A stretch of 64,000 bases of DNA, taken from assembly GCA_043768465.1 (NCBI GenBank), contig JAYVKL010000045.1, forward strand, positions 342 to 64,341, read 5' to 3'. This stretch comes from Pyrinomonadaceae bacterium. Lineage in GTDB: Bacteria > Acidobacteriota > Blastocatellia > Pyrinomonadales > Pyrinomonadaceae. The position numbers and the translations under genes were made by a program. Below, in pieces: positions 7,941 through 60,827 of this stretch. The notes beneath the pieces were generated by a model, which was not told where the DNA came from, did not search any database, and saw only the letters and a list, made by a program, of their open reading frames with translations. How positions within the stretch are numbered: the first letter of the stretch is position 1; each line of letters starts with the position of its first letter.

Positions 7941-7997
7941 TGGATAATTGATGATTGATAAGTTGATTATCCATTATCCATTATCCATTATCCATTA
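7941..7997. repeat. Imperfect hairpin with tandem heptamer arm (ATTATCC x4 / GGATAAT)
   Basis: tggataattgatgattgataa ... attatccattatccattatccattatcca. The right arm overlaps the guaD stop codon. The same heptamer recurs at 33270-33293. Confidence 0.6.
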
Positions 7998-9345: not shown

Positions 9346-9352
9346 ATTGTTT

Positions 9353-9400
9353 TGAGTGGAGAGTCGAGATTTTCAATTCCGTATCTCGACTCTCGACTAT
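9353..9400. repeat. Short hairpin with GAGAGTC/GACTCTC units
   Basis: gagtggagagtcgagat-loop-atctcgactctcgact. The related tract ctctcgactctcgactctcgc sits inside the GT39 CDS at 31404-31429. Confidence 0.55.
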
Positions 9401-13695: not shown

Positions 13696-13768
13696 AATGG
13701 TAAATGGTAAATGGTAAATGGTAAATACAAGATTCATATTTACCATTTACCATTTACCATTTGCCATT
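13696..13768. repeat. 73-nt hairpin: 32-bp stem of GGTAAAT heptamers, 9-nt loop
   Basis: Left arm 13696-13727 is aatggtaaatggtaaatggtaaatggtaaata. The right arm 13737-13768 is its complement with one G.T position. Loop is caagattca. It fills the ImmA-like/PP2C spacer. Confidence 0.9.
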
Positions 13769-14396: not shown

Positions 14397-14408
14397 TATA
14401 AATTGAAA

Positions 14409-14523
14409 AAAGGTCAAAGGTAAAAGGTCAAAGGCTTATCAAATCGTTTGATCGTTAATTTGATTTCAGAGATGACTTTTCAACGTTCATCATTTTGACG
14501 TTCTTACCTTTGACCTTTGACCC
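14409..14523. repeat. Hairpin with AAAGGTC heptamer arms and ~65-nt loop
   Basis: aaaggtcaaaggtaaaaggtcaaagg ... cttacctttgacctttgaccc, in the divergent ImmA-like/pgsA spacer. Confidence 0.7.
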
Positions 14524-15340: not shown

Positions 15341-15377
15341 ACGAATGACGAACATTAAAGAAACATTCGTCATTCGT
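15341..15377. terminator. Bidirectional terminator-like hairpin
   Basis: acgaatgacgaa-cattaaagaaaca-ttcgtcattcgt, flanked by A/T runs, between convergent genes. Confidence 0.6.
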
Positions 15378-21444: not shown

Positions 21445-21655
21445 CGCGGAAGTGGTTTCGGTAATAAACAAGCCGCGTAAAGTTCCCGACTTTGCGATTT
21501 TAGATTTTAGATTTTGGATCGGAAGATTCGCCAACTCTAAATCTGAGCCACTGAAATCAAACAATCCAAAATCCAAAATCGGTAATCTAAAATCGCCTTC
21601 ACGGTTGCGTGGGCAGTCGCGGATTTGCGCCGCGTTCCTTTGCGCCGGTTGCTCG
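21445..21655 (-). promoter_or_regulatory. Cobalamin riboswitch (leader of the TonB receptor gene)
   Basis: Minus-strand reading gives aaaGGAAcgcGGCGcaAATCCgcgaCtGcCCaCGCAACcGTGaagg. A long hairpin follows at 21496-21594, then the B12-box-like AAAGTCGGGAAC... This parallels the riboswitch at 24600-24806. Confidence 0.7.
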
Positions 21656-22517: not shown

Positions 22518-22586
22518 CCACGAGCAAACACGAAATTTCACGAAAAAGGATTTTAAATTTTCGTGTCTTTTCGTGTTTGTTCGTGG
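22518..22586. repeat. Rep-D hairpin (ACACGAAA-type ~10-nt units), copy 1
   Basis: ccacgagcaaacacgaaatttcacgaaaa - loop - ttttcgtgtcttttcgtgtttgttcgtgg. The right arm is near-identical to 47195-47228. It fills the permease-stop to ATPase-start spacer. Confidence 0.75.
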
Positions 22587-23561
22587 TTAATTCTTCCTCA
22601 ATAAATAAATAAACAACGGCGCACCGATTAGAGCGGTAATCGCGCCGACGGGCAATTCACGCGGCGCGATTGCCGTTCGCGCCATCGTGTCCGCCGCGAC
22701 GACGAAAACCGCGCCCGCCAATGCCGAAAACGGAATCACCAGACGATTATCGCTGCCAATCGTCAGACGAATCAGATGCGGCACAATCAGCCCGACGTAA
22801 CCGACCGAACCGCTCGCTGCAACCGAAATGCCGACGAGTGCCGAAGCCGTCGTGAAAACAATCAGGCGAACTTTACTGGTTTCCACGCCGAAATCGAAGG
22901 CATCGCGCTCGCCGATCATCATCAAATTCAACGCTTTCGCCTGCGAAGATAAAATAATCGTCCCGCCAATCGCGCAGATCAGAGTCGTGTAAAATCCGTT
23001 TTTCGTCGCTTGCGACAAATCGCCGAGCAGCCAGAACGTAAACGAGCGTAGTTTTGCCGCGTCCAAAAGCGTCGTCAGCAAAACCAGAATCGAAGACAAA
23101 AACGTCGTCACGATCACGCCCGCTAAAACGAGGCGTTCGACGCTCATTCCGGCGCGGCTTTTCGCCATTTGATAAACCGTCAAAGTCGCCAAACCTGCGC
23201 CGGCGATGGCGAAAATCGGACGCGCCCAAGCGGAATCGGCAAAGAAAACAAAAGCCAGCATCGTTCCCAAAGCCGCGCCGTTCGACACGCCCAACAGATA
23301 CGGCTCCGCCAAAGGATTCCGCAAAAGCGATTGCAGCGACGCGCCCGCCAACGCCAGACTCGCCCCGACGGCTCCGCCGAGCAAAACTCGCGGCAGACGA
23401 ATATCAAAAAGAATCGTCTGCTGATTCTCGTCCAATTCAAAGAACGCGAGCTTTTCACTGCCAAATAAAACGGCAATCGTCAAAACAATCAACAGCAAAA
23501 TCAGGAGACCAACGCCAAAACGCCAACCTCGAACCTTGAACCTTGAACCTTGAATTTTCAC
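22587..23561 (-). CDS. FecCD/BtuC-family ABC permease
   Basis: Typical BtuC pattern (LPRVLLGGAVGASLALAGASLQSLLRNPLAEPYLLGVS). Start placed at GTG 23561, which overlaps the upstream stop as GTGA. The first codons are encoded by GGTTCAA heptamers (KIQGSRFKVRGWRF). Confidence 0.85.
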   Translation of the reverse strand: MKIQGSRFKVRGWRFGVGLLILLLIVLTIAVLFGSEKLAFFELDENQQTILFDIRLPRVLLGGAVGASLALAGASLQSLLRNPLAEPYLLGVSNGAALGTMLAFVFFADSAWARPIFAIAGAGLATLTVYQMAKSRAGMSVERLVLAGVIVTTFLSSILVLLTTLLDAAKLRSFTFWLLGDLSQATKNGFYTTLICAIGGTIILSSQAKALNLMMIGERDAFDFGVETSKVRLIVFTTASALVGISVAASGSVGYVGLIVPHLIRLTIGSDNRLVIPFSALAGAVFVVAADTMARTAIAPRELPVGAITALIGAPLFIYLLRKN

Positions 23562-24599: not shown

Positions 24600-24806
24600 C
24601 CAAACGTCCTGACGCGGGACGATTTTCGGCTAAAAAACTTCAGACAGGTTTCCAGACTTTGCAATTAGCAGTCATCAGTTAGCAGTTATCATAAAATCAA
24701 AATGATAACTGCTAGCTGATGACTGCTAATTGCTTCACTGTGGCGCGACCGTGCGGGATTGACACCCGACTTTCCCATATCTTTGCCGCTTTTTTCAAAA
24801 AGCGGC
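24600..24806 (-). promoter_or_regulatory. Cobalamin riboswitch (leader of the btuF/C/D-like operon)
   Basis: Minus-strand reading gives GGGAAagtcGGGTGtcAATCCcgcaCgGtCgCGCCACaGTGaagc. A 73-nt hairpin follows at 24661-24733, then the B12 box AAAGTCTGGAAACCTGTC (24660-24641). Downstream is a terminator-like stem ctgcctt...aaggcag plus U-run (~24490-24535). Confidence 0.8.
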
Positions 24807-24977
24807 GCATCCGAAGCGTTTTAGGCTGAAAAGAACAAACCGAAATTTACCGACGAATCTGTAAATAAGGTGAAAGGCAACTTAGCACGATGAATCGTCA
24901 CAAGTCAAAAGCAATCGAATTTTGCGCTGATTTTGCTTGATCTTCGGCTTCGCTTGCGGCTATCCTGAAAAGGTCGA

Positions 24978-29145: not shown

Positions 29146-30144
29146 CTAAACATTCAAACGACTGCGATGCTTTTCGATTTTGTCCAATACGCCCAACGCC
29201 AAACTCAAGGCGCGTCTGCCGTCTTCGGCGGTAATCGGCGGCGTTTTATCATTGGTGATGCAATCCAAAAACGCCGTAATTTCGGCGCGGAGCGGTTCGA
29301 CATCAACGATTTCCAAGCGATTGACCGAGATTCCGAGTAGCGGATGAATCGCGTTCGGCGCGAGTGATGTCACGGACGCGAATTTCGTCGCGTAATCTAA
29401 AACGACGTAAGAATTCGTTTGATAAAAGCGCGTTTTGCGAATCTTTTCCGTGCCGATTCTGGAAGCCGTGATGTTGGCGACCGCGCCGTTTTCAAACTCG
29501 ATGCGGGCGTTCGCAGCATCAACTTTGTCGGAAATAACCGGAATGCCGACGGCGTGAATTTCGGAAACTTTGACATCTTCGCCGACCAGCCACTGAACCG
29601 CGTCCAAATCGTGAATCATCACGTCCAACACGACATCAACATCCAAACTGCGATTCGGAAATGGCGAAACGCGATGAATCTCGAAATATAACGGGCGATC
29701 AACGTGCGGGCGCAGCGCGATCATCGCCGGATTGAATCTTTCCAAATGCCCGACCATCAGTTTCGCGCCGGATTTGGCGGCGGCGGCAATCATCAAATCG
29801 GCTTCATCCAGAGTTTTCGCAAACGGCTTTTCGACCAATACGTTCACACCGTTTTCGAGAAACGCGCAGGCGATTTCGCAATGCGTTTCAGTCGGCGTAA
29901 CGATGGAAACCGCATCAACTTTACCAATCATTTCGCGCCAATCGGTGAAAAACGCGCAGTTGTTTTTCTCGCCAATCGAACGCGCATTTTCTTCGTGTTT
30001 ATCGCAAACGCCGACGAATTCACTGTCGCCGTTTTGAGCGATTTCCGCGTAATTGCGGGCGTGATGCTGACCGAGCGAGCCGACCCCGACGACGGCGGTT
30101 TTTTGAATCTGGAATTTGGAATCTGGAATCTGTATTTCGTGCAT
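29146..30144 (-). CDS. Gfo/Idh/MocA-family NAD(P)-dependent oxidoreductase
   Basis: Rossmann motif VVGVGSLGQHHARNY, EKPFAKTLDEADLM and a C-terminal GFO_IDH_MocA_C-like region. The first 14 codons are encoded by GGAATCT-type heptamers (HEIQIPDSKFQIQ). Confidence 0.85.
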   Translation of the reverse strand: MHEIQIPDSKFQIQKTAVVGVGSLGQHHARNYAEIAQNGDSEFVGVCDKHEENARSIGEKNNCAFFTDWREMIGKVDAVSIVTPTETHCEIACAFLENGVNVLVEKPFAKTLDEADLMIAAAAKSGAKLMVGHLERFNPAMIALRPHVDRPLYFEIHRVSPFPNRSLDVDVVLDVMIHDLDAVQWLVGEDVKVSEIHAVGIPVISDKVDAANARIEFENGAVANITASRIGTEKIRKTRFYQTNSYVVLDYATKFASVTSLAPNAIHPLLGISVNRLEIVDVEPLRAEITAFLDCITNDKTPPITAEDGRRALSLALGVLDKIEKHRSRLNV

Positions 30145-30236
30145 AATTGAAAGTCGAATCTATTTCAGCGATACTTTCATTTTCATTGATGCTGTCGAGA
30201 ATTACAAAAACCGAACATTGATTCGTTGAGCCGCCG

Positions 30237-31988
30237 ATGACGGAAAATCCAAAATCCAAAATCCAAAATCCAGGATCCAGAATCCTTTGGCTGCTGTTCG
30301 CGTTGCTGATTGTCTTCGTCTATTTTTTCGGCTTGACGCTTCCGCTGTTGGGTCCCGACGAACCGCGTTACGCGCAGGTCGCCCGCGAAATGTATTTGCG
30401 CGGCGATTGGATTACGCCGACGCTCGGCGGTTTCGACTGGTTTGAAAAACCCGCGCTGCTTTACTGGCTCGAAATCGCGTCGTATAAAATCTTCGGCGTT
30501 TCGGAGTTTGCGGCGCGTTTCGGTTCGGCGGTTTTCGGGTTGGGAACGATTGCCTGTTTGTGGATTTTGGGGAAATCGGTTTCAGGTTTCAGGTTTCAGG
30601 TTTCAGGTGAAAAGATAGAAATCCTAAAGCAAACGTCTGAAATTCAGAAACCAGAAACCAGAGACCTGGAACCAGAAACCAGAAACCTGAAACCTGAAAC
30701 CAGAAACCTGAAACCTGAAACCTCCGTTTTTGCCAATTGGCTGGCTTTGATCGCCGCGTCATCAATTGGTTTGATCGTCTTTTCACGCGGCGCGAGTTTC
30801 GATATTATCCTCACTTTTCCGATTACCGCTGCGCTGGTTTGCTATTTTCTTTTTGAATCTTTGCTCCAAAAGCATTATTTTTGCGCCGTCCCGAATTCAA
30901 TTGTTCTTTCGAAATCTACGGCGGCAAACCTGATCGCTGCCGCGCCGCCGATTGCCTGGGCGAGCTTGTTTCTCGCCGGTTTTTACTTTTTTATCGGTTT
31001 CGCATTGCTTGCCAAAGGCCTGATCGGGTTGATTTTCCCGCTTACCATCGTGTTTTTTTATCACCTTCTGAAGTTTGAACTGCTGCCGGGCAAAGTATTT
31101 CTCATCAGTCTGATTTGGGGAACGATTATCAGTTTGCTCGTCGCGTCAATCTGGTATCTGCCGATGTATCGGGCGCACGGCTGGAAGTTCGTGGACGAGT
31201 TTTTTATCCAGCATCAATTTCAGCGTTTCACGTCCGACAAATATCAGCATCAGCAGCCGTTCTGGTTTTTCTTCGTCGTTCTGCCGCTGATGACTTTGCC
31301 GTGGCTGCCGTTTTTTCTGGCTTCGATCTGGAATTTTTTCAAGGTTCAAGGTTCAAGGTTTAAAGTTCAAAGTTCAAGATTTAATGTTCAAGGTTCAAAT
31401 AATCTCTCGACTCTCGACTCTCGCCTCGCTCCTTTCGCCTTCGCGTGGCTCGCCGTGCCGCTCGTTTTTTTCTCGCTTTCCGGCTCGAAACTTCCCGGCT
31501 ATATTTTGCCGGCACTGCCCGGCGCAATCGTTTTAACGGCGATTTATGTGGCTGATTTTGTGCGGAAATCGCGGACGCGAACGCGTGTTTTGCAGATTGC
31601 GGCAGCTTCGACTTTTCTATTCGTCTTCGTCGGTCTGCAATTTTTCGCGGCGGATTATACAAATTACGAAACCGTCAAAAATATGATTGCGGCGGCGGAT
31701 GCCAAAGGCTTTGCCGATGCCGAATTCGTCAGTCTCTACACGGTTTCGCACAATCTCGAATTCTACGCCGCCGGCAGATTAGAACGCGACGCGGACGGCA
31801 AACTCAAACGCTACGACGATTTTTCCGTGTTGATAAAAGCGGTCAAAACGGCAGGCGACCAACGAATTTTAGTCGTCGTGCCGCAAGCCAATGTGCCGAA
31901 TCTGCAAAAGGAAAACGACTTGGCGGACATCGAAACGATTGCCGAAAACGGCGAATCAGCGATTATCTTGATTAAGCCGAAACGGTAA
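30237..31988 (+). CDS. Glycosyltransferase family 39 (ArnT/PMT-like) membrane protein
   Basis: GPDEPRYAQVAREMYLRGDWITP signature and more than 10 TM helices. Carries three heptamer-tract-encoded segments (N-terminus, 30577-30725 and 31340-31429). Confidence 0.8.
   Translation: MTENPKSKIQNPGSRILWLLFALLIVFVYFFGLTLPLLGPDEPRYAQVAREMYLRGDWITPTLGGFDWFEKPALLYWLEIASYKIFGVSEFAARFGSAVFGLGTIACLWILGKSVSGFRFQVSGEKIEILKQTSEIQKPETRDLEPETRNLKPETRNLKPETSVFANWLALIAASSIGLIVFSRGASFDIILTFPITAALVCYFLFESLLQKHYFCAVPNSIVLSKSTAANLIAAAPPIAWASLFLAGFYFFIGFALLAKGLIGLIFPLTIVFFYHLLKFELLPGKVFLISLIWGTIISLLVASIWYLPMYRAHGWKFVDEFFIQHQFQRFTSDKYQHQQPFWFFFVVLPLMTLPWLPFFLASIWNFFKVQGSRFKVQSSRFNVQGSNNLSTLDSRLAPFAFAWLAVPLVFFSLSGSKLPGYILPALPGAIVLTAIYVADFVRKSRTRTRVLQIAAASTFLFVFVGLQFFAADYTNYETVKNMIAAADAKGFADAEFVSLYTVSHNLEFYAAGRLERDADGKLKRYDDFSVLIKAVKTAGDQRILVVVPQANVPNLQKENDLADIETIAENGESAIILIKPKR
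30577..30725. repeat. Heptamer-arm hairpin (GGTTTCA / TGAAACC) lying in frame inside the GT39 CDS
   Basis: cggtttcaggtttcaggtttcaggtttcaggtg ... cagaaaccagaaaccagagacctggaaccagaaaccagaaacctgaaacctgaaaccagaaacctgaaacctgaaacc. It translates as [11 protein letters not shown]...KPETRDLEPETRNLKPETRNLKPET. Confidence 0.9.
31340..31429. repeat. Tandem GGTTCAA-type heptamers plus CTCTCGA units, in frame inside the GT39 CDS
   Basis: caaggttcaaggttcaaggtttaaagttcaaagttcaagatttaatgttcaaggttcaaat...ctctcgactctcgactctcgc. It translates as KVQGSRFKVQSSRFNVQGSNNLSTLDSRL. Confidence 0.85.
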
Positions 31989-32301: not shown

Positions 32302-33282
32302 TCAATTTTGCGCCGCCCGTTTCAATCTGTCCGTTAAAGCCGCGCCGATTCCCGCATCCGCCACTGTTTCGCAATAAATCGTCTTGATATTCCGTCGGTC
32401 GCATTCCCGAAAAAAGGCGAAAACTTCGTGCGCGTATTCGTCAACCGACGCGCAAATTTTCACCGAATCAAACGGCTGATGCGGTTCATTTAATCCGATA
32501 AACGCGCTTGATCTGGAATCTGAAATCTGAAATCTGGAATCTGGAATTAAAACTACTCGCGCCGTCGGCGAATAATGACGATGTTTCAAACCCGGACTTT
32601 TCGGCGTTTCATCATTTCCGGCTTGATAATTTCGCGTTTCTGGAACGATCCTCTGCAAATCGCGCAGTGAAATCGCGCCGCTTCGCAAAACCAGAGGCGC
32701 GTTCGCAGTGCAGTCAACGACGGTTGACTCCAATCCGATTTCCGTCATTGCTCCCTTCAGAATGCAGTCAATCACACCGTCTAAATCTTCAAACACGGCT
32801 TGCCACGTCGTCGGCGAAGGCTTGCCCGAAAGATTTGCCGACGGCGCAACAATTGGCGTTTCGCAAGCCGTCAGGAATTCCCGCGCCAGTTCACTGCGCG
32901 GCATTCGCACGCCGATTGTTTCGAGATTCGCCGTCGCAAGCAAAGGCACTCGCGCCGCTTTCGGTAACACTAAAGTCAAAGGCGCGGGGAAAAACGCCGC
33001 GATAAACTTCTCCGCCGACGGCGTAACTTCGGAAACAAGAAGCTTGATTTGTTCCAGACTTCCGACGTGCGCGATCAGCGGATTATCGTTCGGTCGCCGT
33101 TTCGCCGCAAAAATTTTAGCAATCGCCGCCGCATCGAAAACATCTGCGCCCAAACCGTAAACCGTTTCGGTCGGAAACGCGACGATGCCGCCGCTTTTAA
33201 TAAATTCGGCGGCTTCAGTCGGCGATTCGGTTAGGACGGTTTTCATTTTCACAGTTAAAACTTTTACGACTTCATTATCCAT
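32302..33282 (-). CDS. L-threonylcarbamoyladenylate synthase (Sua5/YwlC type, YrdC domain + Sua5 C-domain)
   Basis: GGIVAFPTETVYGLGADVFD and IAHV motifs. The inter-domain linker contains the heptamer-encoded IPDSRFQISDSRSS (DNA 32510-32547). An alternative start is ATG 33246 (MKTVLTES...). Confidence 0.85.
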   Translation of the reverse strand: MDNEVVKVLTVKMKTVLTESPTEAAEFIKSGGIVAFPTETVYGLGADVFDAAAIAKIFAAKRRPNDNPLIAHVGSLEQIKLLVSEVTPSAEKFIAAFFPAPLTLVLPKAARVPLLATANLETIGVRMPRSELAREFLTACETPIVAPSANLSGKPSPTTWQAVFEDLDGVIDCILKGAMTEIGLESTVVDCTANAPLVLRSGAISLRDLQRIVPETRNYQAGNDETPKSPGLKHRHYSPTARVVLIPDSRFQISDSRSSAFIGLNEPHQPFDSVKICASVDEYAHEVFAFFRECDRRNIKTIYCETVADAGIGAALTDRLKRAAQN

Positions 33283-33335
33283 TATCCATTATCCGTTTTC
33301 CATTTCGCCGCCGCTTTCGTTAAAGTTTATAGAAG

Positions 33336-33450
33336 TTACGCGAGTTGAAAATTAAAGGGATATTTTAACAGGATGGACAGGATGAACAGGATCAGCAGAC
33401 AATTCGGCAAGTCTCCTGTCCATCCTGTTAGTTTTCTTTCAACTGCATAA
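33336..33450. repeat. Rep-C element copy 2
   Basis: TTACGCGAGTTGAAaattaaagggatattttaacaggatggacaggatgaacaggat...ctcctgtccatcctgttagttttcTTTCAACTGCATAA. The interior is a CAGGATG-unit hairpin. Confidence 0.75.
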
Positions 33451-33466
33451 CTCGTAATTTAACCAA

Positions 33467-35303: not shown

Positions 35304-37373
35304 CTAAGAATTTTGATCCTCAGCATATTTAATTGTTAACTCATCTTCAAAATCGAACAGTTGCAAAGCGTATTTTAGCCTATCGAATTTTACGGTGTTA
35401 CTTAAATGCGACTCAATAGAGTAAGTATCATTCAGTTGAACAGGTTGTCTTAAATTGTTTTCAGCAAGATTTTTAGTCAAGCCAATTTTCTCACCTAAAC
35501 CTGTAGTAAAAAATGTTTCAGGCTGCAATTCAAATAACTGTTTGCATATCTCTAAATAAAGTTTGGTAATTTCTCTGACTTCAATTTTTTGATCGAGAAA
35601 AATCGCATAATCTAATTTTTTATGAGTTGGGTCATCAGCATCGAAAATGCTAACTTCACCATTGCTTAGTTCATCTAAAATAGTAATTGCAGGAATTTGC
35701 CAAACTTTTAAAAATCTTTTAGCGATCAAATCGGAACGCTTTTCTATTTCAGCCTTGTCCCATTTTTCCAGACTTGCAAGGTATTTATTGAGCCAAAGCC
35801 GACTGTCTTTATATCCGGCATTCTCCAAATCTCTTTTGAAGGAAAATGTTTTATTGCTTAATTTTCCGTTATTACCGGACAAAGTTAAATTTCCGACTGT
35901 GTTTAAGTAATTCTCTTTGATGAACTTGTGATCCTCCGCGCCTATCTCCGTTTTCCATTTTGGATCAGGATTTTGTGGAAAAATATGTTCAATTGTTATG
36001 TCAGAATTATCATCAATAACAACCGGCTCTTTATTCTGGAAATTTTCCAACCGTTCAAGCAAGTATGTTCTGTTCTTTGCTTTGATGTTGTAAACGTCTT
36101 TTTCTTTGAGAGCATTTATTGTTTCAGTATCTCTTGGAAAACGACTATTGCCAATCAATTTAAGCAACGCTTTCTGAACAGAATACAAATAGTTTTCTTT
36201 TTCAACTTTGTCGTAAAGCGTCATAAAGATTTTGTTTCTACCTTCCGTTCCAAATCCGACAATAAATCTTCGCCAAGTGAATGACTGCACCAAATCCAAA
36301 ATTGAAACAAAAGTCGGCTTGTCAATAATAGAGTTTGCGTAATCTTCATATACTTTCATCAAAAAAGGGTAGGCGACGTTTATTTCCAACCGATTAATAT
36401 ACTCAAGTTGAATTCTTATGTCCTTATCCGGTTCATTTTGTGGGTTAATTAACTTGTTGTAATACTTAACCAATGACTTGATTTTTAACAAAACATCCTC
36501 CAATTGTGCAATTGAGGATGTTGGATATTTTGATTTAAATTCAAGATAAACTTTTCCTTTGTTCGGAATTTTGTTGTTTTCAAGCGTTAAGTAATCACGG
36601 ATAAAATCTGACACTCGACTAAGGTTTGAAGTTTCATCTTTAGCCAGTTTCTCGATGACTTCCCAGTAATTTTGGTAAATCAAGTTTTGGTCTCTTCTAT
36701 TTAACCCGATCAAAATATAATTGCGAATCAAATCCGCCGGCGATAATGTCAAACCAGTAGAATTTAGGCTCTCAAAGATTCTTTGCGGATTATCTTTTTC
36801 TCTATCGAGCGAAACTTCAACGAACATTAGTTTTGATAAGCCCGCCAAAACTGTCTTATAGTTTTCTTCATTTATTCTTCCCTTAAAATAATCAAAGTTA
36901 TCGGTTATTTTTGAGTAATCATTATATTCTTCAGTCTGATCGCTTCTGAGTAGATACTTTAAGGCTCGGTCGTTGTTATCTGTCGGTCTGAGTTTTAACT
37001 TTTCTTCCTCACGAGCAAACTTGTTAATTAAATACGTTTCACTTATTTCGCTGACAAGTTCATCGTCTTTCAATTCGATTGCCAAACTATAGATGGCTAA
37101 ATAAATTAATGTCAGCGTCGTTAATCTTTGCTGTCCGTCAATAATTGTAAGTTCCTTGATTCTCGAAGTTATGTAATCGTCATCGTGAACATAAACTATA
37201 CTTCCAATAAAATGAGCATTCATCTCACTACTCACTCCAACTTCAAAAATGTCATCAAGTAGTTGTTTACAATGGCTTGGAGACCAATCATAATTCCTTT
37301 GATAAACAGGAATTACAAACTGAGTTTTGTTAGAAGACAAGAAATCTTCGACTTTTGTTTCATTAGCTTTCAT
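35304..37373 (-). CDS. GmrSD-like DUF262 + DUF1524 protein (putative type IV, modification-dependent restriction endonuclease)
   Basis: N-terminal DUF262 motifs FVIPVYQRNYDWS and IIDGQQRLTTL. C-terminal His-Me/HNH-like DUF1524 (ITIEHIFPQNP ... VGNLTLSGNNGKLSNKTF). The DNA is visibly AT-rich. Confidence 0.8.
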   Translation of the reverse strand: MKANETKVEDFLSSNKTQFVIPVYQRNYDWSPSHCKQLLDDIFEVGVSSEMNAHFIGSIVYVHDDDYITSRIKELTIIDGQQRLTTLTLIYLAIYSLAIELKDDELVSEISETYLINKFAREEEKLKLRPTDNNDRALKYLLRSDQTEEYNDYSKITDNFDYFKGRINEENYKTVLAGLSKLMFVEVSLDREKDNPQRIFESLNSTGLTLSPADLIRNYILIGLNRRDQNLIYQNYWEVIEKLAKDETSNLSRVSDFIRDYLTLENNKIPNKGKVYLEFKSKYPTSSIAQLEDVLLKIKSLVKYYNKLINPQNEPDKDIRIQLEYINRLEINVAYPFLMKVYEDYANSIIDKPTFVSILDLVQSFTWRRFIVGFGTEGRNKIFMTLYDKVEKENYLYSVQKALLKLIGNSRFPRDTETINALKEKDVYNIKAKNRTYLLERLENFQNKEPVVIDDNSDITIEHIFPQNPDPKWKTEIGAEDHKFIKENYLNTVGNLTLSGNNGKLSNKTFSFKRDLENAGYKDSRLWLNKYLASLEKWDKAEIEKRSDLIAKRFLKVWQIPAITILDELSNGEVSIFDADDPTHKKLDYAIFLDQKIEVREITKLYLEICKQLFELQPETFFTTGLGEKIGLTKNLAENNLRQPVQLNDTYSIESHLSNTVKFDRLKYALQLFDFEDELTIKYAEDQNS

Positions 37374-37397: not shown

Positions 37398-37652
37398 TTA
37401 AGTGTGTTTCTCAGGCAGGAGCGCAATCAAACCGCGCAGAGCGTTGTTGACCGCTTTCGTGTCGGGAAAATATACTTTCACGTCTTCGTCAAGAAAAATC
37501 GGGCGCGTTTCTTTGATAACGGTTGAGCCGTCCGATTGATGAATAATCGTCGTGTAACCGTTTTTCATCGCCTCATAATACTTTCCGCGAATACCTTTTT
37601 TGCCGCAAAAATCGTATTCGGCTCGCATTTCGTCTTTAGGATTGTTCTTCAT
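37398..37652 (-). CDS. BrnA-like antitoxin
   Basis: 84 aa. Overlaps the BrnT stop by 17 nt. AEYDF..KKGIRGKY and the C-terminal IFLDEDVKVYFPDTKAVNNALRGL resemble BrnA-family antitoxins. Confidence 0.55.
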   Translation of the reverse strand: MKNNPKDEMRAEYDFCGKKGIRGKYYEAMKNGYTTIIHQSDGSTVIKETRPIFLDEDVKVYFPDTKAVNNALRGLIALLPEKHT

Positions 37653-38004
37653 AAATCTTTCTCTCTAAAACAGTCGCGTTACGGCAACTGATAATTCTAA
37701 TCGAAATTTCGCCGCCGTTAACGGAAACTTCCGTGTGAACGACGAGCAGAATGCGATTGACACTTGAAAGACCGATGCTGATAGATATTTCTTCTCCAAT
37801 CGAATGAAATTCGTCGGCGAATGTTACAAGCAGCAGATCGTTGAAAACCGTTTCGGCTTCGTCAAAATCAATTTTATGTTTTCGCAGATTCGCTTTCGCT
37901 TTATTTTCGTCCCATTCAAAAATCACTCTGCCATTATATGACAGAATCTTACTGCAATCTACAAATTCATTTTCCTCATATAGGCGCGAAGACAGCTTGC
38001 CCAA
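37636..38004 (-). CDS. BrnT-family (DUF497) toxin
   Basis: FEWDENKAKANLRKHKIDFDEAETVFND is the BrnT signature. A GTG at 37926 (xIFEWDE...) is a plausible alternative start. Confidence 0.8.
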   Translation of the reverse strand: MGKLSSRLYEENEFVDCSKILSYNGRVIFEWDENKAKANLRKHKIDFDEAETVFNDLLLVTFADEFHSIGEEISISIGLSSVNRILLVVHTEVSVNGGEISIRIISCRNATVLERKIYEEQS

Positions 38005-43164: not shown

Positions 43165-43313
43165 AGCGTGTTTGGAAATTCAAAAGGATTGGCAATTTTG
43201 CATTTTACATTCTTCATTCTAAATTTTTATCCGGTAAAAATTAAAAATGTAAAATGAAGAATGTAAAATTAAGCCGTCAACTTTTCGACCGAACGACTTT
43301 CCAAACACGCCCT
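43163..43313. repeat. Rep-B element, intact ~151-bp copy
   Basis: TIRs are AGAGCGTGTTTGGAAA ... TTTCCAAACACGCCCT. The core hairpin is aattttgcattttacattcttcattctaaattttt-atccgg-taaaaattaaaaatgtaaaatgaagaatgtaaaatt, built from TACATT-type heptamers. Confidence 0.8.
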
Positions 43314-44683: not shown

Positions 44684-44882
44684 CTTTTTATAAAATTACC
44701 TTTTAAAGCGAATCGGCACTTGGTAATCAAAAATTATACAAGTCCCTCTCTGCGTCCTCTGCGCCTCTGCGTGAGAAAGTATTTCACGCAGAGGACACAG
44801 AGAAAAACTCAACTCTATTGATATATTCTCAACCGCCGCTCGCATTTTAATCGTCTATTCAACCGAATTTTATGATTGGCGC

Positions 44883-45987: not shown

Positions 45988-46006
45988 TTCGATATTTCTT
46001 TAAAAG

Positions 46007-46128
46007 TTAAGCAGTTGAAAAATTAAGGGCATATTTTAACAGGATGAACAGGATTAACCGACAATTCGTCAAATCTCTTTTATCCTGTCTGTCCTGTCCA
46101 TCCTGTAAATTTTCTTTCAATTGCGTAA
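46007..46128. repeat. Rep-C element copy 3
   Basis: TTAAGCAGTTGAAaaattaagggcatattttaacaggatgaacaggat...cctgtctgtcctgtccatcctgtaaattttcTTTCAATTGCGTAA. The interior is homologous to copy 2. Confidence 0.75.
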
Positions 46129-46257
46129 CTCGTATTCTTGTTTAGTTCTCGAATTCGCTCGCCGAAAATTTGTTTCTCAACCGTCTTTCACCTAAAATTA
46201 CAGTTTCGTCTGATTGCTGACTGACGCAGCCTAGAATCATAATTTATCAGTATTTAT

Positions 46258-47146: not shown

Positions 47147-47228
47147 AGCCGCGAACAAACACGAAAAAATACAGAAAATAAATTGACCTTTATTTTTCTT
47201 TCGTGTCTTTTCGTGTTTGTTCGCGGCT
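47147..47228. repeat. Rep-D hairpin, copy 2
   Basis: agccgcgaacaaacacgaaaaaa ... tttctttcgtgtcttttcgtgtttgttcgcggct. Between galU (+) and the convergent histidine kinase gene. Confidence 0.75.
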
Positions 47229-50806: not shown

Positions 50807-50881
50807 AATTCTTTATTTCAAAAGGCAAAAGGCAAAAGTTTCAGATTGAAATTTTGCCTTCTGTTTTTTGCTTTTGCCTTC

Positions 50882-54343: not shown

Positions 54344-54467
54344 GCCGTCTCAAAAATCGGAAATTCTAAATTTTTCATTTTTCATTCTAAATTTTACCGA
54401 GGAAAAAATGAAGAATTGAGAATGTAAAATTTAGAATTTAAGACGACCGGCGGATTTTTGAGATAGC
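54344..54467. repeat. Rep-B-related element
   Basis: gccgTCTCAAAAATCgg...aaattctaaatttttcatttttcattctaaatttt-accgagg-aaaaaatgaagaattgagaatgtaaaatttagaattt...ccggcgGATTTTTGAGAtagc. Confidence 0.65.
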
Positions 54468-55415: not shown

Positions 55416-55486
55416 AGCCACAGAGATCACAGGGATCACCGAGAAAAATTTATAAACTCTCTGTGATCTCTGTGATCTCTGTGGCT
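55416..55486. repeat. Hairpin with ~9-nt tandem units (CACAGAGAT / ATCTCTGTG)
   Basis: agccacagagatcacagggatcaccgag - loop - ctctgtgatctctgtgatctctgtggct. ~29 bp with 2 mismatches, in the rsfS-rlmH spacer. Confidence 0.8.
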
Positions 55487-55923: not shown

Positions 55924-55985
55924 CAGTTGTCAGTCATCAGTCGTCAGTCATTTTGTAATCAATGATAACTGATGACTGATAACCG
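55924..55985. repeat. Imperfect hairpin with CAGTCAT heptamers
   Basis: cagttgtcagtcatcagtcgtcagtcatt-ttgtaatc-aatgataactgatgactgataaccg. The same unit forms the hairpin inside the riboswitch at 24661-24733. Confidence 0.7.
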
Positions 55986-55986
55986 T

Positions 55987-56691
55987 CTAAATGTAAAGTT
56001 CGTATTTTTCGACGTATTTTGCAACCTCGTCCGGCACGAGTTCGCGCCAATCTGTTTGATTATCACGAATTTTCTGTCGAATCTCCGTTGCCGAAACGTC
56101 GAGATTGACGGCATCGGTGAGGTAAATTTTAGTTTCTCGCTTCTCGTTTCTCGTTTCTCGCTTTCCATCTGAAACCTGAAACCTGAAACCTGAAACCTGT
56201 CCGCGTAAATCAACGATTCGGGCGCGAATCGCTTCCGTCACCTGTGAAAATTCGATTTCGTAATCGGGGCGCGTGACGACGATGATATTGGTCTGCGTTA
56301 AAACCGTTTCCCACTCGCGCCAGGTCGTGATTTCCGTCCAGGAGTCCGCGCCGATGACAAAGTAGATTTCCGCGTCGGGCAAATTATTTACCAATTTCGC
56401 CTGCGTTTCAAACGTAAAAGGCTTTTCGGGAGCGTCGAGTTCGATGGTGGAAATTTCAATTTTAGCTTCGTTCGCCGTCGCCAGACAAAGCATCGCGTAT
56501 CGGTGAAACGCCGAAGTCGGCTGGCGGTCTTTTTTGTGCGGCGCGTGAAAAGCCGGAATGAAAACGAATCGGTCGAGCGCGAATAATTCGATTGTTTTTC
56601 GCGCAATCGCCAAATGTCCGTTGTGAAGCGGATCAAACGAGCCGCCGTAAAACGCGATGCGCCCATGTTTCACCGATTTGTTAAAATTCAT
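55987..56691 (-). CDS. nadD: Nicotinate-nucleotide adenylyltransferase
   Basis: [15 protein letters not shown] (HxGH) and the C-terminal DVSATEIR (ISST-like). Start placed at ATG 56691, with GTG 56673 also possible. Contains a ~25-aa heptamer-encoded insert. Confidence 0.9.
56133..56199. repeat. Two adjacent heptamer tracts (TTTCTCG x4, CTGAAAC x4) in frame inside nadD
   Basis: tttctcgcttctcgtttctcgtttctcgctttcc + atctgaaacctgaaacctgaaacctgaaacctg. Translated on the minus strand as [25 protein letters not shown]. The second tract matches the right arm of the hairpin at 58279-58351. Confidence 0.9.
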
Positions 56692-57727
56692 CGGCGTTCG
56701 GCGGCGGTTCCAAATCAATTTGCTCGCGCTTCATTTCGTCTAATTTTTGCGCGACGGCGTTGACCAATTCTTTGGTTCCCAAATTTGTCACGGCGGAAAT
56801 TTGCAGAAACGGTTTGCCGTCTTTTTCGGCGAGTTCGCGCAATTTTTCCAATCTTTCCGGCACGTCCAAAGCATCGAGTTTGGTGGCGACGACGATTTGC
56901 GGGCGCGTCGCCAGGTTTTGATCGTAATTCGCCAGTTCACGATTGATAATCTCGTAATCTTCGTTGGAATCGCGCCCGGAAATCGAAGAAACATCAACCA
57001 GATGGAGAATCAATTTCGTCCGCTCGACGTGGCGCAAAAATCGGTCGCCCAAACCCGCGCCTTCCGACGCGCCTTCAATCAAACCCGGAATGTCGGCGAC
57101 AACGAAGGTTTTGTATTCGCCCAAATCAACCACGCCCAAATTCGGCTCTAAAGTCGTGAACGGATAATCGGCGATTTTCGGTTTGGCGGCGGAAATAACC
57201 GAAATCAAAGTTGATTTCCCGGCGTTCGGAAAACCGACCAGCCCGACATCGGCGATCAATTTTAATTCAAGCTGCAATTCCTTTTCTTCGCCTTCGCGCC
57301 CCGTGTAATGATATTTCGGGGCGCGATTGGTGGACGTGGCGAAATGCTGATTTCCCCAGCCGCCTTTGCCGCCTTTCGCCGCCAAAAATCTTTGTTCGGC
57401 TTTGGTGAAATCGAACAGCAAATCTTCCGATTCCGCGTCGAAAACCTGCGTTCCGACCGGAACTCTGATAATCACGTCCGCGCTGTCTTTGCCGTGCCGG
57501 TTCGAGCCTTCGCCGTGCCGCCCGCGCTCGGCTTTGTGTTCGGGGTTATAGCGCAAGTGCAAAAGCGTGTTTAAACTTTCACCCGCTTCCATCCAGACAT
57601 CGCCGCCTTTGCCGCCGTCGCCGCCCGAAGGTCCGCCGCGCGGCACAAACTTTTCGCGTCGGAAAGCCGTTACGCCGTCGCCGCCTTTGCCGGAAGCGAT
57701 TTTAATTTTTACGCGGTCTATAAACAT
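56681..57727 (-). CDS. obgE: GTPase Obg/CgtA
   Basis: Obg fold ([18 protein letters not shown]), G1 GFPNAGKST and G3 DIPGLIEGA. Confidence 0.95.
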
Positions 57728-57773
57728 TGATATTTTCGATTTTCGATTGACTATTGGTGAATTTCAGATTCGA

Positions 57774-57852
57774 GGTTTTGAGCTCAAACTTCAGTTTGCT
57801 TTCTGCCAGCGAAGCGAAGCAGCAAAACACGCTCAAATGTGAACTTAGAACG
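57774..57852 (+). repeat. Rep-A element copy G
   Basis: ggttttgagctca-AACTTCAGTTTG-..CTGCCAGCGAAGCGAAGCAGC..-CACGCTCAAATGTG-aacttagaacg, in the rpmA-obg spacer. Confidence 0.75.
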
Positions 57853-57970
57853 GTTGACAAAATAAAAACGCGCCCGCCAAACTTTTGAAGATTAGCGAGT
57901 CGCGCCGTTTGATTATGCGAATCTTGCGAAGAATAATTCGCTTGACCGCCAACCCAAATTCGCAAATTAT

Positions 57971-58278: not shown

Positions 58279-58351
58279 GGTTTCAGGTTTCAGGTTTCAG
58301 GTTTCAGATTGCATTTTCCAATCTGAAACCTGAAACCTGAAACCTGAAACC
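58279..58351. repeat. 73-nt perfect hairpin: 32-bp stem of GGTTTCA heptamers, 9-nt loop
   Basis: 58279-58310 is ggtttcaggtttcaggtttcaggtttcagatt. 58320-58351 is its exact reverse complement. Loop is gcattttcc. It occupies most of the 96-nt rplU-rpmA spacer. Confidence 0.95.
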
Positions 58352-58363
58352 AACTCTCCTTTA

Positions 58364-58648
58364 CTAGTCAATTTTAATTTCCGTGTAACCTTGCCGATGA
58401 CCTTGTTTGCGTTTGTATTGTTTGCGGCGTTTCTTCTTGAAGACAATTACTTTATCGCCGCGTCCGTGTCCGAGAACCGTCGCGTTCAAGGTCGCCGCGC
58501 CGAACGTCATATCCGCGCCTTCGCCCGATGACAGAGCTTCGAGTTCGACCGTTTCGCCCTCTTTCTTAGCAATCGAAGGAACCCGTAATTTTTGTCCCGA
58601 TTCGACCGCGAATTGTTTGCCGCCTGTTCTGATAATTGCGTAACTCAT
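58364..58648 (-). CDS. rplU: 50S ribosomal protein L21
   Basis: MSYAIIRTGGKQFAV ... RRKQYKRKQGHRQ. Confidence 0.95.
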   Translation of the reverse strand: MSYAIIRTGGKQFAVESGQKLRVPSIAKKEGETVELEALSSGEGADMTFGAATLNATVLGHGRGDKVIVFKKKRRKQYKRKQGHRQGYTEIKID

Positions 58649-58734: not shown

Positions 58735-59392
58735 ACGCGGACAAAATATCCGTCAAGAAAAATTCACCGGTAAATGATATTTTCTCGCCTCGAACGGCGC
58801 GTTAGTAAATACGGAGACCGAGTTTGTCAGCCGACGGTGAAAAATTATGCGAATGCGATGACCTGCCAAAAGCCGCAGATATTTTAATGCTCGAATTATT
58901 TCTGAAATCCGAGCAGTTTTACAAGTATTTTTCATCATCGTGATTTTTATTTGGCAGTCTTTGACTTTGACTGAAGATTTTCGGGTTGCTGGTCCTGAAT
59001 TCAGCGCGTCAAAAACAGCACCGGATTATGAAAAAACTTCGATTTATTTTTTATTACATCAAACTGCGTTCGAGCGTTATGCTCGGCTTTCACCAAACGA
59101 GTTATCCGCTGAACTTGAAATGGCATTGGAAGTTCTGGAAATATCAGGAGAAACAGCGCAGCGGTCGTTGAGACCGATTCTTGTCCCGGTAGTTTTTTCG
59201 CGGCGTTCCCGGTCAGCTTTTTCAAATACTTCTTTCCCTGATCTTTTCCGCTCTTCAACCGAAAATTGACAGCTTTTCGTCCCGGCGCATCTTCATTTAT
59301 TTTTTAGAGCGTGTTTGAAAATTCAAAAAAGACCGGCAATTTTACATTTTACATTCTAAATTTTTATCCGGTAAAAATTTAGAATGTCGAAT

Positions 59393-60613
59393 AGGGCAAA
59401 CGCATTAAAATTTTAGAATTTTCAGCAGGTAACTTTCGTCCCAACCGGCTTTCAGGCGTTTGCTCTTGATTCCTTGTTTGCAACTTTTTTCTTGTTTCAG
59501 CAGATTTATTCCTAAATGCCTGATAATTGCCGGATTTTCTGCCGCATTGCCCGTCCGTGTCCGGCATTCATCTTCTCGAAACCCGATCTCTAAACACCAA
59601 TGCAACTCGTTTTCAATTGCCCAATGTCCTCTCACGGCGCGTAAGGCTTCTTTTGCATTTGCCCCTAAACTGCTGATGAAATATCGCCTTTCGACCGTTT
59701 TCTCGCCGCCGATAACTTCTCTGACAGCCTCGACCATAATCACACTTTTCAGATTTTTCCAGTCTTCTCGTTTCTCCAACCACTGGATTTCTTCGGTTAT
59801 CCAACACCGTCTTTGCTCGATTCGCCCGTGTCCTTTTTCCAATGTTTCACAGTAATCAAACGCTATCTCCCGGAATTTTGTGCGCTCCACCCAATCCAAA
59901 TAATCTTTAATGTCCTGATGTAAATTGCCTTGATTGCCTTTCAAGCTAATGACATAATCCGCGTCTTTTTCCGCTATTTCTTTGACGATCTCTTTTTGAC
60001 AACCCATCGCGTCAATCGTCACGATACAACCGGCAATCTCGATGATTTTTAACAGTTCGGGAATCGCCGTAATCTCGTTCGATTTATCTTCACACTTGAT
60101 TTGTCCCAACCCCACCGATTGCTCACTTGCCCACGCGCTGACCATATTTAACGCTTCTTTGCCGCTTGGCGTTGTCTTACTCCGTCGAATTACTTTCCCG
60201 TCAATGTTCACTAATTGCCCCGCACTCAAACTGACCGCCGAGCGAATCCATTCCAAAAACGATGTCTTTAACTCGTCCGCATCCAACAAAATAAACACCC
60301 GCCGAAAGGTGTCAGGCGACGGAATTCCGTTTTCCAACTCCAAAAACGAGGCTCACCATTCGCGTTTAGCGTGTCCGAATTCCTCGATGTCTTCCCAAGT
60401 TTCCGCCGCACAAATCATCGCACAAACCGCAATCACCAGAATATCCACCAACAGATGCCGCTGATGCTGCTCAATACGCGGGTCTTTGATAGCTGATATA
60501 TTTTCAAATAACGTCTTTACTTTTAATTGTCCCAAGTCATTGCTCCCATTTAGTAAATCTAAATGAAAGTTTGACACATCTTCTCTTTCTACAAAATTTA
60601 ATGCGTAAGCCCT
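59393..60613 (-). mobile_element. ISAs1-family insertion sequence (~1.22 kb)
   Basis: Terminal IRs AGGGCAAACGCATTAAAATTTT / AAAATTTAATGCGTAAGCCCT. Flanked by the direct repeat AGAATGTCGAAT (59381-59392 and 60614-60625). The duplication is 10-12 bp, depending on where the IR starts. Confidence 0.85.
59405..60577 (-). pseudogene. ISAs1-family (H-repeat-like) DDE transposase interrupted by one in-frame TGA
   Basis: The N-terminal 74 aa (...DPRIEQHQRHLLVDILVIAVCAMICAAETWEDIEEFGHAKREW) stop at TGA 60355-60353. The same frame continues ASFLELENGIPSPDTFRRVF ... DKSNEITAIPELL ... TIDAMGCQKEI ... RYFISSL ... HWAIENELHW. Confidence 0.8.
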
Positions 60614-60827
60614 AGAATGTCGAATGTAAAATGTAAAATTAAGCCGTCCAATTTTCGACTAGGTGAATTTCCAAACACGCTCTGATAAAAATCCGCCGGC
60701 AAGATCCGAATTAAACGCGGACGAACGCCGAGAGACACGGATAAAAGCAAAAAACTCAGAGAAAAATCGGCGTTCGTCCGCGTTTACGGGCGGTTAAATT
60801 TCCTTGTTTTTGATTTTCACGAGCGGT

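Follow-up and report, generated by a model that had tools for sequence, protein, structure and literature searches.

Heptanucleotide arrays have been known since 1990. In the summary of Mrazek 2007 given in PMC4679880, heptamers appear as the commonest long simple repeats of bacteria, and slippage is proposed as their origin. Arrays of the heptamer GGGAATC form 70-75 convergent inverted pairs per Xanthomonas genome (Rehm et al. 2015, PMC4692102). Direct repeats of TAACTGA occur in marine Beggiatoaceae, some Cyanobacteria and Bacteroidetes (MacGregor 2015, PMC4679880), and heptamers near start codons of Nostoc were proposed to be regulatory (bioRxiv 10.1101/2022.06.06.494920). Here, such arrays were analyzed in an uncultured soil bacterium of the Pyrinomonadaceae (Acidobacteriota) by means of a 64-kb stretch of contig JAYVKL010000045.1, which is probably 1-2% of the genome and is termed the window. 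The prototype is a hairpin with heptamer arms in the mRNA spacer between the ribosomal protein genes rplU and rpmA. A literature search yielded no report of heptamer hairpins in Acidobacteria, in agreement with the original prediction, made from the letters of the window, which knew of no description for such a genome. The architecture itself is not new: convergent heptamer pairs are known from Xanthomonas (PMC4692102), and arrays at start codons, in ribosomal protein operons and at protein termini were described in PMC4679880.

Between genes, the repeats are mostly convergent inverted pairs, which place the G/T-rich arm first on either strand and form hairpins of 14-35 bp; inside genes, they are single in-frame arrays. 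The arrays gain and lose complete units, and homogenisation acts on each arm separately. A locus can last over evolutionary times on the scale of the family, during which its unit sequence drifts. Some hairpins form dispersed families with common loops and flanks, which demonstrates copying to new sites for some loci. With moderate confidence, we interpret the repeats as heptanucleotide short tandemly repeated repetitive (STRR) or 'long simple sequence repeat' (LSSR) arrays that are specific to part of the Pyrinomonadaceae and evolve by slippage turnover and rare copying.

Heptamer arrays are enriched in the window

Tandem tracts of at least 2.5 copies were counted in the window and in 40 dinucleotide shuffles. 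The window contains 25 period-7 tracts, compared to a mean of 0.35 in the shuffles, and two period-9 tracts, compared to 0.025; periods 4, 5 and 6 are at chance level. A density above that of shuffled sequence had been anticipated. Tandem Repeats Finder, which was run independently, returned the same arrays. The 16 loci for which a common hairpin architecture had been proposed all fold as hairpins, with 14-38 pairs and z-scores from -4.3 to -18.3 relative to mononucleotide shuffles. The best arm period is 7 at the ten heptamer loci and 8-10 at the other six. Additional loci were found at 30578-30723, 30105-30132/30244-30285, 43195-43273, 54361-54441 and 59339-59364/60614-60639, and about 15 convergent pairs of same-unit arrays lie close together.

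The arrays fall into at least 15 unit classes, which are mostly A/T-rich with only GG; none contains a G3 run. The 12.5% of the window outside the map of open reading frames (ORFs) holds 40% of the array bases, and intragenic arrays are frequent nonetheless. Every one of the eight unpaired arrays (11315, 23525, 31338, 31404, 32511, 33273, 56134, 56169) is intragenic. Rfam at gathering thresholds matched only one tRNA and a cobalamin riboswitch in the window; no family covers the hairpins. The features are collected in Table 1.

The rplU-rpmA spacer keeps its architecture while its units change

The claim that the arms of the prototype are exact reverse complements filling the rplU-rpmA spacer was borne out: 58279-58310 and 58320-58351 match exactly, and the flanking ORFs, identified by Pfam as L21 and L27, are 96 nt apart. 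A repeat search lengthens the arms to 33 nt with 100% complementarity and a 7-nt loop. Folded as RNA, the spacer reaches -61.6 kcal/mol (z = -12.5), and none of 200 dinucleotide shuffles folds as well. The layout is, in order, AAGGAG, 5 nt, the 73-nt hairpin, 11 nt and the rpmA AUG. No Shine-Dalgarno (SD) sequence lies between hairpin and start codon, and reading of the sequence after the stem revealed no U-tract.

The comparison of this spacer covered 13 loci from genomes and about 65 from metagenomes. Among relatives whose L27 is at least 80% identical, most carry a hairpin of 60-109 nt with heptamer arms, whose units differ but are related and often share a GGATT/AATCC core. For example, L006, with 93% nucleotide identity in rpmA, has GATTCCA/TGGAATC in register with GGTTTCA/TGAAACC of the window; two substitutions per unit are carried through all units of both arms. 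Comparison of orthologous spacers, as had been proposed, thus reveals a retained architecture with a changing unit (GATTCCA to GGTTTCA), compensated in the other arm. In L091-L094 and L013, each arm is uniform internally, yet the arms pair at just 5-6 of 7 positions (GGATTGC vs AAATCCC in L092-L094; GATTTGC vs AATCGAA in L013). Homogenisation is therefore faster within than between arms, and there is no strict requirement for perfect pairing. The spacer of L023 is a plain SD spacer of 12 nt, that of L014 measures 32 nt, and L109, L115 and L118-L120 have spacers of 3-5 nt. In more distant bacteria used as outgroups, the spacer measures 0-40 nt and contains no arrays.

Downstream of rpmA, at 57728-57970 of the window, the corresponding rpmA-obg spacers of relatives (L016, L017, L019-L023) contain a GC-rich hairpin (GACGCCCGCGCC...GGGCGTC) that is conserved among them and precedes a T-rich sequence; this hairpin probably terminates the rplU-rpmA operon. 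An 87-codon ORF at 57702-57965 is without Pfam match and probably spurious.

Indels between strains lie in the arrays

Contigs L002, L172 and L179, all from sample ERZ27280971, represent a close strain with about 78 groups of substitutions relative to the window in about 24 kb (about 0.3% substitutions). It shows four indels. All four are located in tandem-array hairpins, and three are whole-unit multiples. L002 has 7 nt (one unit) more in one arm of 55924-55985 and 9 nt (one unit) less in one arm of the 9-mer hairpin 55416-55486. In L179, the long arm of 30578-30723 is shorter by 21 nt (three units), which keeps the frame (576 vs 583 aa), and the 33368 hairpin is longer by 17 nt. The strain comparison of 20.2-25.0 kb revealed no indels. 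In L005 and L009, the 7-nt loop of the prototype is inverted (GAAAATG vs CATTTTC), with unchanged arms and a nucleotide-identical rpmA. Template switching from one arm to the other, or recombination, would be expected to produce such an inversion.

Hairpins are placed flush between stop and start codons

Six operon junctions share one layout: the stem begins 0-4 nt past the stop codon and is followed by the ATG at a distance of 5-11 nt, and neither an SD sequence nor a U-tract follows the stem. These distances were read manually; automated ones across relatives are noisy, as boundaries from minimum free energy folding and start codons are uncertain. The hairpin 9353-9400 fills the 51-nt junction of the genes 9397-10722(-) and 8479-9345(-), and the ATG is 7 nt past the stem of 13696-13768. 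For the protein encoded at 13773-14417, a look-up gave no entry. At 7941-7997, the 3' array (ATTATCC x4.6) takes in the stop codon of the deaminase gene 7995-8471(-), and an SD sequence lies after the hairpin.

The nadD-rsfS junction is the most informative with respect to origin. In the window, a 62-nt hairpin occupies a 68-nt spacer, flush between the nadD stop (TAG plus 1 nt) and the rsfS ATG (5 nt after); L013 has a related hairpin in a 122-nt spacer. The start-proximal arm is NNACTGA x4 (55924-55951, - strand) in the window. In L013 (OZ252004.1, 12300-12322) it is TAACTGA x2.6 in direct repeats, which end 5 nt before the rsfS start codon as well. The two genes overlap (TAATG/ATGA) in L011, L012, L014 and L018, and they overlap or abut in most relatives. 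Since relatives have no spacer or stem there, the hairpin sequence was brought in. Of the earlier proposal that slippage expanded pre-existing stems, the slippage part is upheld by the location of all four strain indels in arrays, whereas a pre-existing stem is contradicted by this junction.

Two candidate rules were examined and rejected. Operon-internal hairpins are not intrinsic terminators: their A/T-rich stems are followed by TGAACAGAATTATG, AAATTATG or ACTCAATATG and by no U-tract. A terminator function is possible only for hairpins between convergent genes (15341, 47147), and 15341-15377 could act as one, given its A/T-rich flanks. The rule that the start-proximal arm has stop codons in all frames holds for CTGAAAC and NNACTGA and fails for ATTTACC and TCTCGAC.

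When folded, a stem would keep the upstream stop codon or SD sequence at about 6-15 nt from the next AUG. A self-complementary insert of 50-100 nt would then be tolerated at a coupled junction where an unstructured one would uncouple translation. If self-complementarity makes inserts tolerable in this manner, this would explain why arrays are paired between genes and single inside them.

This placement, together with the retention of the rplU-rpmA hairpin across the family despite complete sequence turnover and with compensatory arm changes, would also be accounted for by selected RNA elements. These would be RNase III sites, 3'-exonuclease blocks resembling repetitive extragenic palindromic (REP) sequences or bacterial interspersed mosaic elements, or split ribosome-binding sites that set cistron ratios, and a long stem would be reached most easily via repeats. 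With 33 bp, the perfect duplex would be of sufficient length for RNase III. An SD-like motif occurs only before the hairpin in 14 of the 34 orthologous spacers; in these, the stem must therefore fold to join SD and AUG. In 13 of the 34 it occurs only after the hairpin. However, the arms of many lineages match at no more than 5 of 7 positions, hence selection for perfect pairing is not strong, and the close relatives with short spacers (L023, L014, L109, L115, L118-L120) do without a hairpin at the same junctions. Arrays are also found unpaired in genes, and at 30105/30244 the arms belong to two divergent transcripts, which makes an RNA hairpin impossible. Selection on RNA structure accounts for neither the 7-nt period nor the polarity of the arms described below. 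We consider it unlikely that the hairpins are selected elements of this kind. Within the slippage interpretation, they may also act as processing or stability elements.

Arrays inside genes and in a riboswitch

Intragenic arrays are translated in frame. Of the convergent arrays at 30105/30244, each occupies the initial codons of a different gene, the two genes being divergent; in the array-bearing gene at 30105-30285, the GFO_IDH_MocA domain recognized by Pfam begins at aa 15. An ArnT/PMT_2-like ORF (30237-31988) reads through three arrays, and its Pfam PMT_2 match ends at aa 114. The array-bearing loop of NadD differs in length among relatives, and L013 has a different heptamer array there.

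A cobalamin riboswitch (24626-24829(-); Rfam RF00174, 38 bits) has the hairpin 24661-24733 as its variable peripheral stem, which falls in an unaligned insertion of the model. The riboswitch precedes an operon of btuF-like, FecCD, ABC ATPase and TonB-receptor genes.

The G/T-rich arm comes first

Arm polarity was counted for the paired arrays of the window and its relatives. The 5' arm contains more G than C in 42 entries and the opposite holds for 4; for T and A the corresponding numbers are 33 and 14. After collapsing the arms, a hand count gave about 30 vs 2 with G>C among roughly 34 distinct hairpins, about ten of which are orthologous rplU-rpmA spacers and hence not all independent. Because a hairpin is symmetric, the polarity holds on both strands. 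It extends to non-complementary neighbours, namely GGAATGC ... AAAATCC in L008 and TTCAAGG ... CTCTCGA in 31338-31427. Possible causes are the avoidance of an exposed C-rich 5' arm, which is a potential Rho entry site, a preference for an A/C-rich leader beside the start codon, or the addition of G/T-rich units to 3' ends by some mechanism.

A mechanism of the last kind would be a dedicated repeat-adding activity, similar to telomerase, reverse transcriptase or a primase-polymerase, that adds G/T-rich heptamers to the 3' ends of DNA breaks. Convergent arrays would result automatically once two ends of this kind are joined. The strong polarity, non-complementary pairs included, would follow from it, and it would fit a period of strictly 7, the patchy occurrence across phyla and within the family (PMC4679880) and the units favoured by individual genomes. 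Yet many different units occur in one genome, unlike the product of a single fixed template, and units change gradually at orthologous loci. Moreover, the adjacent NadD arrays are both G-rich on the same strand, and Pfam detected no candidate enzyme among the about 60 ORFs of the window. Such an activity is considered very improbable.

Some hairpins belong to dispersed families

The heptamer hairpins are not copies of one MITE (miniature inverted-repeat transposable element). This hypothesis was rejected, as units, loops and flanks differ, and the original prediction of a common architecture with different units stands. The hairpins 58279, 13696, 9353 and 7941 share no loop or flank. Heptamer hairpins have neither target-site duplications nor shared termini, and the only insertion sequence (IS) of the window has unrelated ends (AGGGCAAACGCATTAAA).

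The further statement that a single dispersed element is less likely is valid for the heptamer loci as one MITE but is incomplete, as four groups are dispersed families. First, the alignment of 22518-22586 and 47147-47228 spans the arms and some of the flanking sequence. Second, 33368 and 46040 are copies of the ACAGGATG element. Both of these pairs belong to the versions with 8-10-nt units, and their conservation extends over loop and flanks. Third, the ATTTTAC-family hairpin 43195-43273 is a dispersed element because its loop (TTATCCGGTAAAAATT) and flanks are conserved; further copies are at 54361 and 59339/60614. Fourth, 24661 and 55924 form a CAGTYAT pair that has TCAGTCATCAGTTA in common. 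The same unit class is found at 2-3 separate loci within the 64 kb.

The about 120-nt ACAGGATG element (33300-33460, 45990-46150) precedes uvrC (33467) and an NTP_transferase gene (46258) and has no Rfam match. It may represent a promoter/operator common to both genes, or a small RNA. The IS in 59339-60639 encodes DDE_Tnp_1 plus DDE_Tnp_1_assoc on the - strand, is bounded by AGGGCAAACGCATTAAA and TTTAATGCGTAAGCCCT, and sits in the 3' arm of the ATTTTAC-family hairpin, where its target of 12 nt, AGAATGTCGAAT, is present in duplicate (59381 and 60614). Hairpin repeats may be the target of this IS.

Relatives have favoured units of their own: CAGTGGT in L016, which contains three near-identical CAGTGGT hairpins with similar loops, TTAGCNN in L021 and AGAGGYY in L020. 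The arrays of L021 (3730-3804, 5741-5848, 15177-15297 and many others) and of L020 (9368-9440) keep a 5-nt core with two variable positions per unit (TTAGCNN / NNGCTAA; AGAGGYY). They look more like phased recognition sites than like pure slippage products.

A separate REP/REPIN-like family without heptamer periodicity consists of CGTTCAGAGTCCA inverted doublets about 55-75 nt apart (10782/10847, 29028/29093, 32029/32103, 40791/40848; singles at 21660, 26432 and 57840). The motif has 17 matches in the window, compared to 2.15 expected. A REPIN-like consensus is confined to this family and is approached loosely by the ATTTTAC, CACGAAA and ACAGGATG families.

The dispersed families and the favoured units of individual genomes are what would be expected if the hairpins were non-autonomous REPIN- or MITE-like elements moved by an enzyme encoded elsewhere. 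Periodicity and unit changes would then be secondary, and the favoured units would mark each genome's active families. The recurrence of unit classes in the window, the near-identical hairpins of L016 and the gain of a hairpin at the formerly overlapping nadD-rsfS stop/start are compatible with such movement. Against it, most heptamer hairpins of the window share neither loop nor flank with another one and display no terminal signature or target-site duplication, and the rplU-rpmA hairpin was inherited vertically across the family, with a gradually changing unit. The differences between strains are all unit indels, none being presence or absence of a hairpin. Apart from housekeeping genes, Pfam searches of the about 60 ORFs recognized just a GmrSD nuclease, a BrnT toxin and a single DDE IS, with no gene for RAYT/Y1, IS200-like, reverse transcriptase or PrimPol proteins; the sole transposase thus belongs to the IS that is itself inserted in a hairpin. 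In our judgement, it is unlikely that the hairpins are mobile elements of this kind. The gene of the GmrSD-type restriction endonuclease (35304-37373) adjoins that of the BrnT toxin (37636-38004) in a small defence/toxin island, which has no link to the repeats.

Table 1. Repeat arrays, hairpins and associated features of the 64-kb window (nt positions; dG in kcal/mol).
Position	Strand	Feature	Properties and context
7941-7997		GGATAAT-type hairpin	dG -18.0, z -4.8, period 7
9353-9400		GAGAGTC-unit hairpin	z -7.5; ATG 8 nt past stem, no SD
11315-11343	-	TTGGAAT x4 array	inside Peripla_BP_2 gene
13696-13768		hairpin (AATGGTA)x4.4 / (ATTTACC)x4.6	32 bp, 97% complementarity; dG -43.7, z -13.6
14409-14523		long-loop hairpin, AAAGGTC / GACCTTT arms	between divergent genes; z -4.9
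15341-15377		short hairpin, CGAATGA / TCATTCG units	between convergent genes; z -5.9
21496-21594		imperfect hairpin, GATTTTA / AAAATCC arms	upstream of TonB-dependent receptor gene; z -5.9
22518-22586		hairpin, about 10-nt units (CACGAAA core)	family copy 1; z -8.6
23525-23554	-	AACCTTG x4.3 array	first about 12 codons of FecCD-type permease (called gene 324 aa)
24661-24733		32-bp hairpin, period-7 arms (CAGTYAT type)	z -15.6
30105-30285		convergent arrays (GAATCTG)x4 and (AAAATCC)x6	arms 30105-30132 / 30244-30285, about 110 nt apart
30578-30723	+	hairpin-forming arrays (GGTTTCA)x4.4 ... (CWGAAAC)x11	z -11.4; in frame in ORF 30237-31988
31338-31427	+	compound arrays (TTCAAGG)x8.7 + (CTCTCGA)x3.4	in frame in ORF 30237-31988
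32511-32547	-	ATCTGGA x5.3 array	in frame, inside Sua5/TsaC gene 32302-33282(-)
33273-33294	-	GGATAAT array (on - strand)	overlaps Sua5 start codon
33368-33432		hairpin, 9-nt units (ACAGGATG type)	copy 1 of about 120-nt dispersed element; upstream of uvrC
43195-43273		ATTTTAC-family hairpin, period-7 arms	conserved loop (TTATCCGGTAAAAATT) and flanks
44747-44800		hairpin, 8-9-nt units (CTCTGCGTC)	z -5.1
46040-46112		ACAGGATG element	copy 2; unit numbers differ in both arms
47147-47228		CACGAAA-core hairpin	family copy 2; between convergent genes, then T-run
50816-50880		hairpin, CAAAAGG / CCTTTTG arms	between convergent genes; z -4.9
54361-54441		ATTTTAC-family hairpin	diverged copy
55416-55486		hairpin, 9-nt units (CACAGAGAT)	between rsfS and rlmH; dG -49.6, z -15.0
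55924-55985		hairpin, CAGTCAT / NNACTGA units	nadD-rsfS junction
56134-56199	-	adjacent arrays (GGTTTCA)x4.4 + (CGAGAAA)x4 on - strand	in frame; NadD variable loop
57971-58267	-	rpmA (ribosomal protein L27)	downstream cistron; Pfam Ribosomal_L27
58279-58351		prototype hairpin (GGTTTCA)x4.5, 7-9 nt loop, (TGAAACC)x4.5	rplU-rpmA mRNA spacer; genes on - strand
58356-58361	-	SD-like AAGGAG	identified by sequence; upstream of prototype hairpin
58364-58648	-	rplU (ribosomal protein L21)	upstream cistron; Pfam Ribosomal_L21p
59339-60639		ATTTTAC-family hairpin split by IS	5' arm + loop 59339-59392; remaining 3' arm 60614-60639

The arrays are patchily distributed among relatives

Obg of the window assigns it to the Pyrinomonadaceae (Acidobacteriota, Blastocatellia); the best Obg matches are 72-84% identical. 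The window contains 3.9 period-7 tracts per 10 kb, and L013, L016, L019, L020 and L021 contain 3.7-7.1, whereas the other eight of the 13 Pyrinomonadaceae loci have 0-0.6. With five loci high and eight low, the trait is therefore patchy even inside this family; roughly half of the sampled relatives have it, and it is absent from other Acidobacteria. About 65 outgroup loci mostly have 0-1 period-7 tracts, at most 3, with the exception of L058.

L058 (JAFZOL010000044.1) stems from a rumen metagenome-assembled genome (MAG) labelled 'Clostridia bacterium' with 61% GC and contains 11 period-7 tracts in 21 kb. At 9128-9871 and elsewhere, convergent arrays (AGATGTG...CATCTNA; AGGGGCC...GGCCCCT) surround GC-rich inner segments. 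This contig either represents the same architecture in another lineage or is mis-binned.

Several short contigs break inside hairpins (L003, L004, L005, L010; L174-L177), as would be the case if the tracts were artefacts of short-read metagenome assembly. The same arrays, however, are present in independent assemblies of different samples and assemblers. Equivalent arrays occur in L013 (OZ252004.1, a single-contig chromosome of 4.75 Mb) and in L016 (an MFD MAG contig of 339 kb), so that they are no artefacts of short reads, and in two strains the reading frame continues intact across intragenic arrays. An assembly artefact, which had been named as a refutation, is hardly conceivable.

A model of array evolution

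In the slippage model that we favour, units would change by slipped-strand mispairing, with 7-nt loops that likely escape mismatch repair. Template switching from arm to arm within a hairpin would occasionally restore perfect complementarity and could invert the loop. New loci would arise rarely, via copying of an existing hairpin into a new site. Selection would leave arrays only in unconstrained DNA, that is, in stop/start gaps, in variable protein loops and termini and in the variable stem of the riboswitch. Within proteins, arrays would survive only as multiples of three units.

Several points weigh against this model. Plain slippage predicts neither a period of 7 nor that the G/T-rich arm comes first, and the favoured units of L016, L021 and L020 argue for a sequence-aware process beyond simple slippage. 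In a 5.8-kb comparison of seven contigs, three repeat loci showed no array indel; turnover is thus not uniformly fast. The loop inversion in L005 and L009 is known from multi-k short-read assemblies only. With 64 kb examined, hairpins that appear unique may have copies elsewhere in the genome. Finally, it is solely the geometry of the junctions that suggests translational coupling or split ribosome-binding sites.

A more far-reaching proposal is that a lineage-restricted system, i.e. structure-specific copying/insertion or an end-extending polymerase, places hairpins at stop/start junctions, where they are used as looped-out intercistronic modules, and that the same system underlies the heptamers of cyanobacteria, Xanthomonas, Beggiatoaceae and Bacteroidetes. 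We regard this proposal as improbable. If true, the system would be discoverable by phyletic profiling of rich and poor sister genomes.

With respect to the origin of heptamer arrays, the reason for their 7-nt period and their function, heptamer-rich and heptamer-poor genomes within one family provide an unusually clean comparative setting, and the rplU-rpmA spacer alone displays the whole course between an SD spacer of 12 nt and hairpins of 100 nt. Unit indels are visible at the strain level, including in-frame intragenic ones, and the strong polarity constrains any mechanism. In practical terms, the hairpins break short-read assemblies, and slippage-prone tracts arise in nadD and other genes. 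For gene calling and expression prediction in Acidobacteriota, it matters that essential genes can have a stable stem between SD sequence and start codon.

Comparison with known repeat systems

The repeats belong to the STRR/LSSR class of heptamers, which has known members in cyanobacteria, Xanthomonas and sulfur bacteria; the phylum is new. The features of this class are all present: many arrays, specificity for period 7, occurrence in sporadic lineages, unit-number variation and intergenic enrichment. According to the summaries in PMC4679880 and PMC4692102, cyanobacterial genomes likewise contain several heptamer families, heptamers dominate among repeats of 5-11 nt, the spread is lineage-specific and polymerase slippage is the proposed cause. 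In these summaries, the STRR of heterocystous cyanobacteria and the LSSR are described mainly as direct arrays, and hairpin arrangement and arm polarity are not stressed.

The GGGAATC repeats of Xanthomonas are also tandem 7-nt units that are strongly over-represented between genes. They often form convergent arrays on opposite strands with the G-rich one first, capable of stem-loops or cruciforms, and their unit number varies between related genomes while the single or paired type is kept (PMC4692102). In contrast, Xanthomonas has essentially one G-rich consensus with G-quadruplex potential, whereas here at least 15 unit classes without G3 runs are found, in-frame intragenic arrays occur in addition, and the phylum is another one.

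The TAACTGA repeats resemble those of the window in their position upstream of start codons (at a distance of a few nt, and frequently with no SD sequence), in their overlap with upstream stop codons and in their occurrence inside ribosomal protein operons. They also occur in peripheral parts of proteins, including, as in the window, the N-terminus of a corrinoid ABC permease, and are patchy across lineages (PMC4679880). The start-proximal forward position is shared by the nadD-rsfS junction and five other junctions of the window. A unit of the TAACTGA type is seen at one locus only, namely nadD-rsfS (NNACTGA x4 in the window, TAACTGA x2.6 in L013), and other loci use other units. BOGUAY has one dominant unit and inverted pairs in 1 of 170 cases, whereas many units, and usually an inverted pair between genes, are found here.

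REP/REPIN sequences, which are mobilised by RAYT proteins (PMC3116915), are comparable as extragenic hairpin-forming inverted doublets of about 60-100 nt that lie flush with gene ends and form many-copy families. However, REPINs have a fixed consensus of about 20-25 nt without internal 7-nt periodicity, and most heptamer hairpins of the window lack a common consensus. In the split ribosome-binding sites of phage T4 genes 38 and 25, a stable hairpin brings SD and AUG to functional spacing. By analogy, the rplU-rpmA layout would have the same SD-hairpin-AUG geometry; unlike in T4, half of the orthologous spacers carry the SD sequence after the hairpin. What distinguishes the Pyrinomonadaceae repeats from the known systems are the many units per genome, the inverted pair as the default between genes, in-frame arrays with a three-unit indel and the family-wide orthologous series.

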